Both the position numbers and the translations under genes were made by a program. Under the pieces are notes generated by a model, which saw only the letters and a list, made by a program, of their open reading frames with translations, did not search any database and was not told the origin of the DNA. DNA of 64,000 nt from Octopus vulgaris (lineage: Eukaryota): positions 169,942,001 to 170,006,000 of the forward strand of contig OX597815.1 of assembly GCA_951406725.2 (NCBI GenBank), written 5' to 3'. This document shows, in pieces, positions 2,431 through 59,955 of the stretch. Position 1 is the first letter of the stretch. Every line of letters starts with the position of its first letter.

Positions 2431-2840
2431 GTATCAGGCACGTGCTGTCAGTAATTACTCAGGGTAGGCAGTTGGTGATTTTTATGTAGTGAAACACAAA
2501 AAATAAGCGAAACGCAGAAGCGCGACTGAGTTAAAAGCAGATTTCTTTCTGCCTTTATAGCACGTAAAGAAAACGGTGTTGTAGGAGTGTACGCAGCATG
2601 TGTACTACGGCAGTACTATGCGTAGCTTAAATACTGAGATTGAAAAGCAGGGGTGATTTATGCCTACCTGATTTTCCAAAAAAAAAAATATTTTGCCTTT
2701 TATGCATAGTAATCAGAGTAACCGTTATAATTTTATTGAATTAGGTGCATATTTTGCCCTAAAAGGAAAATGTTGCTATCGATCTATCTTATTCAAGGTA
2801 GGCACTGCCTACCTTGTCTACGTAGGGACACGTCCGTGAC

Positions 2841-2874
<34 letters not shown>

Positions 2875-2986
2875 GGCACAAAGGGAAAACCCTTTAAACT
2901 TACTAATATATTATTAGGGATGGGAATAAAGTGGAAGTTTACAAAAAGTTTTGTTTTTATCATTGTTATATTTTGAATTACATATA

Positions 2987-3432
2987 TACGAGAGGAAACA
3001 TTCGCTGTGGGACAAACCCTTAGTAGTTCGAATTTCCGCGGGCTAGAAGCCACTTCATGCGACCCTCAGGCATCAATCTGCCAACCGACATCGTCCAGTT
3101 ACGTCGTACTACCTCGCGGTGCGTCTTTGTTTTGCAGTACTTCTCCCCAGTCTATCGATTTTGCGATAGCTGAAACGAAGGAACAGCGTGCTTCCGTGAA
3201 ATTCTGTTTTCTGCTTGGGAAAACGATGCCAAAGCAGTTGTCATGCTTCAGATAGCTTACAGGGTTGCTGCCATGAACAAAACACAATTTTACGAGTGGT
3301 TTCTACGCTTTATGAATGGTTACCTGCCGCTTGAAGACCAACGTCGTTCTTGACGACCGTCAACCTCCCAAACGAATGAAAAAATCAGGAAAATTCATGA
3401 ACTGATCTTGGAGGACCGTCACCGAACAACAG
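2987..3432 (+). pseudogene. Mariner transposase N-terminal relic
   Basis: EQRASVKFCFLLGK, then frameshifted ...YEWF.RF..G...LED..RS.RPSTS, typical of the mariner HTH region; has stops and frameshifts. Confidence 0.8.
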
Positions 3433-5055: not shown

Positions 5056-5610
5056 AGGCGCGCTAGCAGAACACTCGAGACAAAATGATTAGGCGGCATT
5101 TTATCAGGCTCCTTACGCTCTGAGTTCAAATGCCGCCGTGATTGACATTACTTTTCATCCTTCTAGAATTGGTAAAATAAGCATCAATTGAGCACTAGGT
5201 TCAATCTAATCGATTGCCCCATCCCTTCAAAATTCCTAGTCTTGTGCCAAAATTAGAAAGAACCAATAAGGGTGGTCCGCAGAGGTCGACTTTGCTTTTT
5301 TCTTATCGGGATTGACAAAAAGTACTTGTTGTTTATAGGGGACGATGTAATCAACAGCCCCACCCTAAAAACTGCTGGTCTTGTGTCAAAATTGGAGAAA
5401 TTTTTGATGGCAGTGAATTGGCAGATCCGTTAAAGCGCCCGGAAAAATAATTGCCTTATTTGCACGAGCTTTTTTACGTTCAGAGTGCAAACGCTGAGGT
5501 CATGCTTACCTTTCATCACTTCGGTGTCAAAAACATAAAGTATCAGTTGTCGATCCTATCAACTACTTCCTTTACCCTCAAAAGTGTTTGCTTTGCGTCT
5601 AAATTAGAAA
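5056..5610 (+). mobile_element. Cluster of diverged SINE family B copies
   Basis: CTGAGTTCAAATGCCGCC...TTTCATCCTT...AAAATAAGCA modules repeated. Confidence 0.7.
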
Positions 5611-8208
5611 CAATTGTTATATCTCCTGTTTAGTCAAGTTTATGTCAAATCCTATAGAGGGCTTCTGTTTTTGATGCTATTATTGTTTATCCCTAAATCA
5701 TCTCTGATAATGCAGACCTAGTAATAATAGATCTTCCTGTCTTGGCCATTCATTTTATTTTTAGACATATTGCATCCAGGCTTACATAATCCAGTGTTAT
5801 TGTTCTTAAAAAAGGTAAGTTGTGAATTGATAGAGATTTGGCCGTTGTTTCTAGCAATCAATTGATTGTATAGAGACATTCCCATTGTCACACTCACAGA
5901 AAGCCTTATTTGGTTGACTTTTTATGATATTCTTATGATATGCAAGTTGTCTCAGTTTGTCAAGTAGACTACGATAAGGTATGTGATGGTGTTATTATAT
6001 TATCTGTTAGGCGAGAAGGCAGTGCTCTTGACCCCTTATAGAGCTTTCGAGAGTGGTCGGTGGGAGCGAAGAAGGTATCCCCAAACAGGAGACAGCCCTA
6101 ATACTTACAACAGAGTGTCTATATTTAGTTATCTTTCAAGCAGCAACCTCGAAGGCTTCTAAAATTCGAATTGATAGGGTATTGAATCGAACACCACAGT
6201 GATTTATCGGCATTCATATCATGACACCAGCAATGAAATATGTACATCGTCGAGACAGCTCTCAATTGTTCAGTCGGTCTATCTCTAACATGACGGATGT
6301 TCTAATATCGTAGGTCACAGCCTCAGCTCTATTACTCATAGTATTTCAGATAATATTTTTAAAAGAATGAATGGTTACACAGCTTCACAGAATTCACATG
6401 TCGATGAAGAGGAAAGTTATTCGGAATAGATTGAAAATATATCCACTTTCTGAAGAGATTAAAAGTTAAAATATATTTCAGTCTAGAAACGTATCTGTTA
6501 AACAATTGTTATCAGTTGAATTTATACCTAATAAGCTCCAATACTTACGTAGATAAAATCTTCGTAGTTATATTTTAAAAGTCCTGTTATTAAAACTTAT
6601 AAACATACTAAAAGATTGTGTTCGTTTATGTTTTTTCTTCTACCCACCAAAATTATTAACCACATAAATCTCGTATAGATTTTCAAATGCTTTAAATATT
6701 TTCAACGGGTTTTCTGTGTTATATTAGATGGAAGCGTGGATATGGTTATGCAACCTAAGAAGGCTTAACTAATGTAAGGAAGTACTGTGAACATAATACA
6801 AAATGCTAATCAGCATGTTCTGAAATGTTTAAGTAAATAAATTTCCTGAGTCATGCATTTATTGCTGATGTTTCGATGCTTCATTTCCTAACCCAGAAAG
6901 AAATAATCGATCGTATGTTATTTGTAATTAGTATAACTTGACACGAATCAATAGCAAAAGGAGTTGACTATTGATCAATAGTTGACTTGGAAGCATCCAT
7001 GACCTATAGAGAGAAAAAGAATTTTATTTGCTTTTGCCAAAACTATTGGAGAGGTTTTACAAGAGTTTTACGTCATTGAGAAGTCATTAAAAGCAAATGT
7101 CAACTGAAGAATTATTCTGAACTTTATTTTTCTATTCACGTTTCAAGACTAGAATATTCTTTCCATGCTCGGTTGGAGCTTTAGCCGTCACTCTCATTGG
7201 TCTTTCCTTTTCTTCTTTGAAGAATCAATCGTCCCACGCGCTTTATCTTTTCATTCTTTTCTTTCTATTCTTTTCGATAATTATTTAGCTTTTTCTTTCT
7301 TTCCTTCTTTTTCTTTCTTTCTTTCCTTCTTTTTTCTTTCTTTCTTTTATCTCCCCACTCTACTTCTCAAGTTTTCTTTTTTTTATTAAATTTAATTTAT
7401 TCAACCTCTAAACAAAAACAAAAATACGCATACACAGCAATCATAAAATTTGACAAGATGCTGTGATGTTAAAGTAGAAATTAACAACATTACATGGAAG
7501 CTATTAAAAGCAGCTACCTTACTATACGCTAAATTTATCGCACTGTAGCTATCATTCTAGATGTGACCTGTTGTTATACATCTGAATTCTTCAATGTTTT
7601 ACATTCATATGGCCGTAGGGAATGGTTTCAGGTGTATCGGTTGTTTGTTGTTATCGTTGTTGTTGCTGTGGCTGTTATTGTTCTTATTTAGCTCAAGGTC
7701 ATCTCTGATCAAGCAGACTAATGCTAAAATGTATTAAAATGTATTCCACGCAAGATGAATCCATTTTTTTTTTGTTCAAGAATAGTGTTCTTAAGACTAG
7801 GGCACATTATTTAATGTAACTTCGTTTTTTTTTAAGATGGTAGGAGTTAGTTTAAAGGAAATTTGGCTATTTCTAGCCGACTGAGTATATGTACAGCAGT
7901 ATCTATTTTGATTCTGATATTTTCAAAACGGTTTACTCTACAACGATTCAAATTTTTGCCACTCAATCTCACTAAAACACTGACAACTCTCACGACACCC
8001 TGCTCTGATAAACACTAACTGAAAGTCTTGAGCTGAGATAAATACCATTTATGACCCGTGCAGTACCACAAGTTTTGCAGTTAGATCAAATTGCTTTTCT
8101 CCTCCTCCACAGTGAAATTTAGTAGAATTTACTATCATATAGGCCCCCGTGTTAACAGCAGAAGAAACTCTCTTTGAATGGATTTCTACAAGACTATATA
8201 TACACGGT

Positions 8209-58559: not shown

Positions 58560-58990
58560 TCGTTCCAGGTGCATATTACTAAGTTGGCAATTAAATGCAG
58601 ACAGCTGGCCGGATGGAGCTTTAGAACTTTCAGAAAGAGAGAACAGGAAACCATAATGGTCCCCTGGAGAACATTTGTCGTCAGCCGTCCAGACTACAGC
58701 TCCCAATTATGGTTACCACTCTGTAAAATTAATGGCAGAATTCGAAGCAATCCAACGAAGCTACACCAAAATTGTCTCAATGAGATGTGTCAGCTACTGG
58801 AGGAGGCTGAAAAAGTTAAGATTCTACTTCCTGGAACGGAGTCGAGAAAGATATGCACTGATGTATAATATCTGGAAAATTCAGGAAGGATTTATATTAA
58901 ACTTTACCAATGGAAGTTGCCTAATAGTAGAATGGCGCACCACTGCATCGTACCAAAAGTCCCAACATTGCCATCAGGATACGGGACCAT
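58560..58990 (+). pseudogene. CR1/L2-group LINE RT C-terminal relic
   Basis: FVVSRPDYSSQLW and EAIQRSYTKI...SYWRRLKKL...LERSRERY...IWKI, frameshifted. Confidence 0.75.
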
Positions 58991-59109
58991 AAAGCAATAA
59001 CCAATATTATGATGAATGGAGAAAAACTTGGCGACATAGACAACTTTAAAATATCTAGGATCTAGTTTGAGCATGGACAGCAGCTCAGTTTTAAACCAAT
59101 CCCAAACAG

Positions 59110-59340
59110 TACCTTGTTTACATTATTTACATTTGACGGATATTTGTTCTCATCTTGTTTGTTGTTAACACAACGTTTCGGCTGATATACCCTCCAGCCT
59201 TCACCAGGTGTCATGGGGAAATTTCGAACCTGGGTTCTCATTTCTCTTAACTACTACGCCATATGCCCGTGGGCGTAGTGGTTCAGAGAGCGCGGGCTAC
59301 TGGCCCCAAGATTCCTAGTTCGATTCCAGGCAGTGACCTC

Positions 59341-59387
<47 letters not shown>

Positions 59388-59573
59388 CAACAACATCGAA
59401 AAATACCTTAGGAATGATAACGCAGGTTCGAAATTTCACCAAGACACCTGAAGGCTTGGAGGGTATAGCAGCCGAAACGTGTTTACAACAAACAAGATGA
59501 GGACAAATATTCGTCAATTGTAAATAATGTAAATAATGTACATAATTCTTCATCTCTTAAACATAGAACTGTA
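59110..59573 (+). mobile_element. tRNA-headed SINE with PLE-type hammerhead tail and 5' inverted duplication
   Basis: 12-bp TSD AATCCCAAACAG (59098-59109 and 59574-59585); A box TGGGCGTAGTGG, B box GTTCGATTCC 59318-59327; (AAT)n; inverted arms at about 59117-59242 and 59411-59535. Confidence 0.85.
59167..59212 (-). ncRNA. Minimal hammerhead motif with a core substitution
   Basis: GACAC-CTGGTGA-A-GGCTG...CAGCC-GAAAC-GTT-GTGTT; palindromic stem III AACGTT; the plus-strand mirror at about 59443-59483 has small deletions. Confidence 0.65.
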
Positions 59574-59955
59574 AATCCCAAACAGCACAAGACTGTTGAC
59601 TTCGCTCTTTTCATATGAGACTCAGAGCTTCACTCTCACAGCTGACATAGAACGTCAAGAGTGCGACCGTTTAAATACAAGCGTTTGAGAAAGTTGGCAC
59701 AATGGGTCTTTTTCGCAGAGCAGAAGACAAACAACTTTTTAAGGCAGTAAAGAACCAAATATGCCAGAAATATGAACCATTCCCGTGCAACAAACTCGCT
59801 TGGTATAGATATATATCCCAACGAAATTCTCTGTCTAAAGCCATAGTCCGGAGCAAATGGCAGGAGAGCGAAGATGAAAAAGATAAAGAAAACCTTGGTC
59901 TGAAACTATCAGGCAAGGAGGGATCCCAATAACGCGGCTTACTCTGTACGATGAA

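Follow-up and report, generated by a model that had tools for sequence, protein, structure and literature searches.

Head-to-head terminal repeats of a Penelope-like element with a tRNA-derived head in Octopus vulgaris, probably formed by twin priming and likely transcribed in short form by RNA polymerase III

The window considered here is a 64,000-nucleotide stretch of the Octopus vulgaris genome (GCA_951406725.2, contig OX597815.1, forward-strand positions 169,942,001 to 170,006,000), which carries at 59098–59585 a single insertion combining a tRNA-like head, hammerhead ribozyme motifs and an inverted copy of its own 3' region. The original prediction, made from the letters alone, read this insertion as a chimeric short interspersed element (SINE) in which a tRNA-derived head had been joined to the hammerhead tail of a Penelope-like element (PLE). 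Every part it named lies at the position given for it in the window sequence, and the features as now understood are as follows.

59098–59109, plus strand: left target-site duplication, 12 nt (from the sequence and a family-wide end-repeat test)
59110–59245, minus strand: short tail-less arm, an inverted pseudo-long terminal repeat (pLTR) body ending at the proximal reverse-transcription entry site
59167–59212, minus strand: left-arm minimal type I hammerhead, its core (59201–59207) damaged by one substitution
59244–59274, minus strand: 5' end of the left arm (leader and start of the tRNA head), stopping 13 nt upstream of the A box
59272–59274, no strand assigned: 3-nt overlap joining the arms head to head, the same junction occurring in other copies
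59271–59339, plus strand: tRNA-derived head of the long arm (A box 59271–59281, B box 59318–59326), tRNA-Arg being closest among the five isotypes sampled
59341–59394, plus strand: (AAT)n(AAC)n tract between the head and the start of the open reading frame (ORF), internal and not a 3' tail
59393–59573, plus strand: body of the long arm, the 5' end of a Penelope ORF, with a likely start codon at 59414
59443–59483, plus strand: right-arm minimal type I hammerhead with two 3-nt deletions (core and cleavage region), predicted inactive
59542–59573, plus strand: Penelope 'tail' (32 nt), the stretch separating the proximal entry site from the distal one and found on a single arm (tail concept from PMC11167929)
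59574–59585, plus strand: right target-site duplication, 12 nt (from the sequence and a family-wide end-repeat test)

The predicted 12-bp duplication was thus confirmed at both ends, as was the inverted copy of the 3' region (59109–59245 against 59410–59541, 86% identity over 138 nt, E = 2.5e-40). The fold-back proposed within the head is present (59243–59260 with 59272–59289) but is not a separate part, since 59244–59274 is the 5' end of the left arm, the middle of which has been lost: this end is complete at 59274, and the remaining head and the AAT tract are missing. At the junction the A box of the long arm has lost its first T. The tail, taken to be some 40 bp of unique sequence, does occur on the right arm alone, but its sequence is the start of the Penelope ORF. 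The CUGANGA/GAAA core is damaged in both hammerheads of this copy, as predicted. ARAGORN found no tRNA in the window, and Rfam models scored neither head nor hammerhead in the window copy or in a better one. The insertion interrupts a decayed reading frame (58640–59097 and 59586–59870) that we take to resemble the C-terminal end of a CR1/L2-type long interspersed element (LINE) protein.

Judged by sequence, the window element is a decayed head-to-head pair of solo terminal repeats of a Poseidon-type PLE, and we regard its identity as a Penelope pLTR as virtually certain. Many relatives, at 78–92% identity, occur in the 2.8-Gb genome. Sixty evenly spaced 10-kb stretches (600 kb) contained nine loci, corresponding to approximately 42,000 insertions genome-wide (Poisson range 19,000–80,000); inverted pairs make up six of the nine, and ORF sequence is present in one and absent from eight. 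Body sequence lies downstream of the head on the same strand at 27 of the 30 loci found by a head-only query (two loci duplicate others), and the hammerhead core is fully intact in 103 of the 178 arms covering it, with CTGA(T/A)GA...GAAA as the majority form. Because the core is intact in most of these arms and head and body are linked in this way, the feature is no chance assembly; the head–hammerhead linkage expected by the original prediction was recovered, and the majority core agrees with the ancestral CTGATGA that it had proposed. More specifically, the majority hammerhead is a minimal type I motif in which an unpaired A precedes stem II, stem III is palindromic and GUU is the cleavage triplet. 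Pairing of stems I, II and III was read by eye and from the left-arm fold; the folding energies of the hammerheads are no lower than those of shuffles, as expected for minimal motifs. Penelope elements are described as having this minimal form, and such motifs as having low activity (PMC4209133). The copies occur singly or as head-to-head pairs, with rare short arrays (loci L023 and L405), unlike the head-to-tail hammerhead arrays that define non-LTR retrozymes.

The autonomous partner was identified from the sampled locus L108, where the end of a GIY-YIG frame directly precedes the head and which served as query. BLAST showed the head after the endonuclease (EN) stop codon and a short spacer (gap about 40 nt) at 26 of 30 EN loci; the other four have head deletions yet keep the leader, part of the head or the body. 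Reverse transcriptase (RT) and N-terminus were obtained by walking upstream of EN, and the unit consists, in order, of the ORF (RT, C-terminal GIY-YIG), its stop codon, a short spacer, the tRNA-derived head, (AAT)n, the hammerhead-bearing start of the ORF and the tail. The tail continues into the ORF in 22 arms, head, AAT tract, body and ORF are contiguous in 5' repeats of L228, L236, L245, L249, L397 and L400, and the EN-to-head junction is spanned by contigs of four runs with four organism labels. In a natural copy (L234) the frame through hammerhead, tail and ORF is 46% identical over 114 amino acids (aa) to the N-terminus of database protein P0003 (E = 6e-29), and past the tail the majority frame stays open for 783 aa. 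Homologues carry PF00078, PF28514 and PF26215; the EN motifs were read by eye. In a quick tree the family RT groups with P0002–P0005, apart from two Neptune-type rows of the same genome, and there is no Zn-finger-like linker. The clade names Poseidon and Neptune are our own assignment, made in part from motifs.

Since the partner's own pLTR has the same tRNA head and AAT tract, the short element is no chimera with a borrowed 3' end; on the sequences compared it is a solo pLTR, or a pLTR transcript, of a coding PLE and not a tail-borrowing SINE. Of the original reading, the tRNA-like head, its stable linkage to the hammerhead and the Penelope-type machinery stand, but the head belongs to the partner's pLTR; likewise, the autonomous PLE that was expected to share the 3' end exists but shares the whole short element, head included. 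The dominance and SINE-like look of short copies would suit an independent tRNA-derived SINE that took only its hammerhead tail from a PLE without a tRNA head. Such an origin is very improbable, given that the autonomous element carries the head both at the EN loci counted above and at L108, L047, L014 and L015, which were found without EN selection. The element has a tRNA-derived head with A and B boxes and is short, non-coding, dispersed and of high copy number, all of which are SINE traits; in a tRNA-derived SINE, however, the head is absent from the partner and only the 3' end is shared with a LINE, whereas here the partner is a PLE holding the whole short element. It therefore appears to work like a SINE yet fails the SINE test on its relation to its partner. 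Short and EN-linked repeats are similar in divergence (4.4% and 5.3%) and share variants. Short copies have the longer AAT tracts (57.5 nt in the median, n = 60, against 34 nt, n = 17; P = 0.003, or 0.03 without tail-query loci), a hint that short copies may form a SINE-like lineage of their own.

No intact ORF copy was found among 134 matches and copies are approximately 92% identical to the family majority, therefore the family looks extinct in this genome. No relative was found in viral contigs. The youngest GIY-YIG family of the genome, with 781-aa frames, was rejected as the partner, having no alignable tail and being of Neptune type with TATA/CCAAT repeats; it was kept as a control.

The family shares with tRNA-derived SINEs, including the octopus families OK, OR1 and OR2 reportedly described by Ohshima and Okada in 1994, a head of tRNA type, short copies that do not code for protein, insertion numbers in the tens of thousands and target duplications. 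Unlike these, it shares the head with an autonomous partner, its 3' end is the start of a Penelope ORF with no LINE tail or simple repeat, and it forms long/short inverted pairs; the comparison with OK and OR1 is by description. OR2 is listed as a CORE-SINE (PMC4758252). With Penelope/Poseidon PLEs such as PAc of Anolis (PMC11167929) and Penelope of Drosophila virilis (PMC2377424) the octopus element has in common a single ORF with RT and C-terminal GIY-YIG, a minimal-hammerhead pLTR in which the ORF start overlaps the hammerhead, two entry sites, a one-ended tail of 30–40 nt, partial tandems and 5' inverted copies. Unlike them, its pLTR starts with a tRNA-derived A/B-box cassette and AAT tract, there is no TATA or intron-like T-rich stretch from stop codon to hammerhead, the sense strand lacks TTTT (T4), and most insertions start at or behind the cassette. 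Upstream units of the octopus partial tandems often end at ORF positions of approximately 215–270 past the tail (L377, L380–L382, L388, L389, L398, L399 and L402); so narrow a zone suggests that template jumps make use of an additional entry site.

The arms of the pairs differ in a regular manner. Family 3' ends fall into two groups, one in 9-nt repeats and the other about 35 nt beyond. Among 73 head-to-head pairs, 63 combine one tailed with one tail-less arm, against two with two long arms and one with two short arms, an arm ending elsewhere in the remaining seven. An end repeat of at least 10 nt (one mismatch allowed) flanks 45 of the 73 pairs as compared to 4 of 73 mismatched controls. The 5' reach could be compared in 64 pairs: the short arm reaches further in 24, the long arm in 20, and both equally in 20, with some differences amounting to 0.5–2.4 kb. 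Because reach varies both ways neither arm is simply a copy of the other, and the ability of either arm to reach further 5' points to twin priming. The junction of the window copy, one complete arm with a 3-nt overlap, is that of most copies. We posit that the inverted pairs arise by twin priming with annealed complementary DNA (cDNA) ends, which the sequences make quite probable. A Poseidon protein has been shown to cut and extend both strands and to start at two sites inside the ORF start, the stretch between these being the tail; hammerhead cleavage is not needed and uncut RNA is used (PMC11167929). By analogy, the protein of the octopus element would cut each of the two target strands, at positions some 12 nt apart, and each nicked 3' end would prime reverse transcription; the start would be at the distal site for one, which gives the tail, and at the proximal site for the other, which gives none. 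Both cDNAs would then anneal at their ends by a few bases, often in the self-complementary leader, and prime each other's second strand to yield the inverted pair; the hammerhead would cut weakly and only as a dimer, new copies deriving from uncut RNA. The rule of one tail per pair, the 12-nt duplication and the independent reach of the arms would in this way tie the entry sites known in vitro (PMC11167929) to the two target strands.

Weighing against two separate templates, the arms of one locus share subfamily variants above chance (39 of 45 against 63% expected, and 42 of 53 against 64%). For this reason two independent RNAs are not demonstrated, and the templates may share a source or stem from related ones, or a single RNA may have been read twice. 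The shared variants would also suit a snap-back, in which a single cDNA, folded back at its 3' end, serves as its own template without a further priming event, as would the 3–6 nt at a few junctions that resemble fold-back extension of the leader palindrome (L012, L027, L028 and L048). We consider a snap-back unlikely: the tail-less arm holds sequence that the tailed arm lacks in 24 of the 64 pairs and the reverse is true in 20, and rare differences are common to both arms in only 18 of 272 cases (2.8% between loci). Moreover, the end point of the tail-less arm is fixed. Some of this contrary evidence could have been mimicked by deletions that came later. Two further signals were discarded. 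AC/GT 'flip-flop' loops do not serve as proof of re-amplification from dimers, most junctions being one complete arm with the 3-nt overlap. The 3-nt deletion near the cleavage site is no subfamily marker (concordance 26 of 33 against 76% by chance) and so says nothing on template number. A 29-nt tail alone was observed inserted inside another repeat (L093:7626–7654).

The tRNA-derived head bears on the transcription of the family. It aligns best to tRNA-Arg genes (z = 6.1–6.8 against shuffles; 30 tRNA loci, mainly of five isotypes), and the majority A and B boxes are intact with the spacing of a tRNA (45 nt). In 78 head arms from the tail-query, head-query and sample sets, the upstream match ends 13 or 14 nt before the A box (−13/−14) in 19 and between −15 and −27 in none. 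Short arms begin sharply at −13, L236, L251 and L052 join unrelated sequence exactly there, and the same −13/−14 edge occurs in other contexts (L052, L236, L251, L381, L396 and L400). The distance of this boundary from the A box is typical of RNA polymerase III (Pol III) starts. Furthermore, the 2,738-nt unit has no T4 on its sense strand (P = 0.006 by mononucleotide and 0.043 by dinucleotide shuffle), and the same is true of the 2.35-kb ORF (P = 0.041 by synonymous-codon shuffle, 0.034 with Neptune codon usage and 0.016 by mononucleotide shuffle). Real copies hold 0.47 T4 per kb, compared to 3.39 in Neptune-type copies at the same 92% identity. Because of the −13 edge and the lack of T4 in the unit, Pol III transcription is likely for the short RNA and a tentative possibility for the coding RNA. 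Pol III would initiate on the G at −13; where no ORF follows the repeat, this would give a short SINE-like RNA, and from a 5' repeat the polymerase would read on through the unit without TTTT.

Related loci from other organisms (61 ORFs, 28 whole units and 33 stop-to-hammerhead regions) provide a comparison. None of the 28 whole units is free of T4. In the region from stop codon to hammerhead, motifs resembling TATA or CCAAT are present in 26 of 33 relatives and A and B boxes in one, L308, whereas neither TATA nor a T-rich intron-like segment was found between the stop codon and hammerhead of the octopus family. L308 is a Poseidon-type element only distantly related, whose two tandem ORFs (855 aa) are intact and identical. 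Its stop codon and hammerhead are separated by a cassette with A and B boxes and by AAT triplets (2741–3171 and 5532–5741), and the ORF begins just before the hammerhead core. Its T4 density is the lowest of the 33 relatives (0.38 per kb; two T4 near the ORF start, P = 0.17). The region also matches TATA and CCAAT, and ARAGORN and Rfam gave no score for the cassette. We treat it as a lead to a second case only, in which a lineage may have adopted a tRNA-type promoter independently.

Each of the sequence lines pointing to Pol III is modest, and several observations weigh against it. Ten of the 19 arms ending at −13/−14 are partners of the junction type that the head query selects, and many head arms end elsewhere. 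ORF-linked heads starting near −13 number only three (L228/L376, L397 and L400), with ORF pieces of 150–340 nt, and the jumps in L245, of RNA or template, span EN, pLTR and next ORF and fit read-through by RNA polymerase II (Pol II) equally. The T4 deficit is only moderately significant and comes from one family, and three of the 61 related ORFs, taken alone, also lack T4 (median 2.99 per kb). There is one CCAAT in the tested region upstream, and the Pol III reading does not explain how an uncapped RNA beginning with a tRNA-like head and an A-rich tract would be translated. Three unstranded RNA runs of one study, in which 81–85% of aligned reads run into unlike sequence with no pile-up of starts or ends at head or hammerhead, give no evidence either way on Pol III.

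These points leave room for two other accounts of transcription. The head may be a passenger, an old SINE head captured in the pLTR of an element transcribed by Pol II, from an internal TATA-less promoter or through read-through from the host, with short copies being ordinary 5' truncations where RT stopped or folded at the leader palindrome. The −13 boundary is indeed the 5' edge of a 4-bp palindrome, and the similar divergence and common variants of short and EN-linked repeats would be expected. Penelope elements leave mostly truncated and inverted copies (PMC4209133, PMC8557442), and the TATA-less internal promoter of D. virilis Penelope (PMC2377424) both favours this account and weighs against the Pol III reading. 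A passenger head is nevertheless improbable, as the boxes are intact at tRNA spacing, the boundary lies at a pyrimidine/purine step, the unit is free of T4, and the head stands where relatives have TATA/CCAAT or T-rich intron-like sequence, none of which remains here. Alternatively, labour may be split, with Pol III making only the short non-coding pLTR RNA (also amplifying from solo copies) and the protein coming from capped Pol II read-through of tandems. This scheme, which we hold doubtful, differs from our preferred explanation only in the step of ORF transcription and fits most of it, including the eight of nine sampled loci that lack ORF sequence and the longer AAT tracts of short copies. 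It leaves unaccounted for both the T4-free ORF and the ORF-linked heads that start at −13 to −4. Autonomous partners of Pol III-transcribed TRIMs (terminal-repeat retrotransposons in miniature) are held to use Pol II of necessity, Pol III being too weakly processive for autonomous elements (PMC10886601), which also speaks for split labour. On balance we favour, with fair but not high confidence, paired Poseidon-type pLTRs with a tRNA-derived A/B-box cassette, likely read by Pol III from −13 and likely twin-primed.

For the short form, the Schistosoma repeats Sm-alpha and Sj-alpha (PMC6765202) are the nearest precedent, being short repeats in which a hammerhead comes after a promoter of Pol III type. 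Those are tandem, ribozyme-released units for which that account describes no coding partner, unlike the octopus copies, which are dispersed or inverted, continue for 60–95 nt beyond the cut site and belong to a coding element. The TRIMp3 elements Cassandra, Helenus and Ajax (PMC10886601) likewise have a Pol III promoter derived from a small RNA inside the terminal repeat; these are non-autonomous LTR elements of at most about 1.3 kb, whereas in octopus the autonomous element itself has the cassette. Non-LTR retrozymes (bioRxiv 10.64898/2026.07.22.740005) and the non-autonomous Chlamys/MRC1 (PMC8557442) are, like the short octopus copies, non-coding derivatives of Penelope repeats; the retrozymes form head-to-tail arrays, unlike the octopus family, and the words 'tRNA' and 'polymerase III' do not occur in the preprint text. 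The main text of PMC13282606 contains neither 'hammerhead' nor 'ribozyme' and leaves most active SINE families unclassified. The octopus family has probably been misfiled as an unclassified SINE. No paper describing a Penelope element with a tRNA-derived promoter was found in a search that did not extend to subscription journals or to Repbase, Dfam and SINEBase, where the sequence may already be entered under another label.

The usual view is that autonomous retrotransposons are Pol II genes, whereas SINEs are Pol III parasites that depend on LINEs. The octopus family blurs this line: a single sequence serves a coding element as its promoter repeat and is at the same time a SINE-like unit, and a SINE could in this way arise directly from the element that is its partner. 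In its fullest form, which we put forward tentatively, an autonomous coding retrotransposon would have swapped its Pol II promoter for a tRNA-derived one, purged Pol III terminators from its 2.7-kb unit, and come to be transcribed whole by Pol III and translated uncapped, its solo repeats being self-sufficient SINEs. If the coding RNA is a Pol III product, this would be a kind of autonomous retrotransposon for which we found no description. Two questions become testable, namely whether Pol III can supply the mRNA of a retrotransposon and how the inverted 5' ends of Penelope elements originate. At roughly 19,000–80,000 insertions the family is also a source of inverted repeats in host transcripts.

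Several further observations concern neighbouring families and host sequences. A search with the 55-aa frame peptide gave as its only match one host protein with an element-derived N-terminus. P0001, a host protein model labelled Octopus sinensis, is cysteine-rich with a membrane span, and the first ~37 residues of one isoform derive from the element frame, possibly by exonisation or as an annotation artefact. Loci L091–L094 (e.g. L093:1081–5790) hold a young Neptune-type Penelope family with copies 97–99% identical and many 781-aa frames. Upstream of these lies another frame, of ~465 aa, and the family has CCAAT/TATA repeats, with a probable intron and a degenerate motif resembling a hammerhead in its repeat. 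A further minimal hammerhead, with different stems and a GUC-type site (L130:7700–7780), does not belong to the octopus family described here. Penelope ORFs with hammerhead repeats also occur in records titled as bacterial genomes or metagenome-assembled genomes (L364–L373, L365, L374 and L375), most likely through eukaryotic contamination. Finally, a fragment lies inside the pLTR body of a duplicated copy (L185/L186, about 2150–2440, oriented), with a similar short piece in L172; we take the L185/L186 fragment to resemble antisense 18S rRNA.
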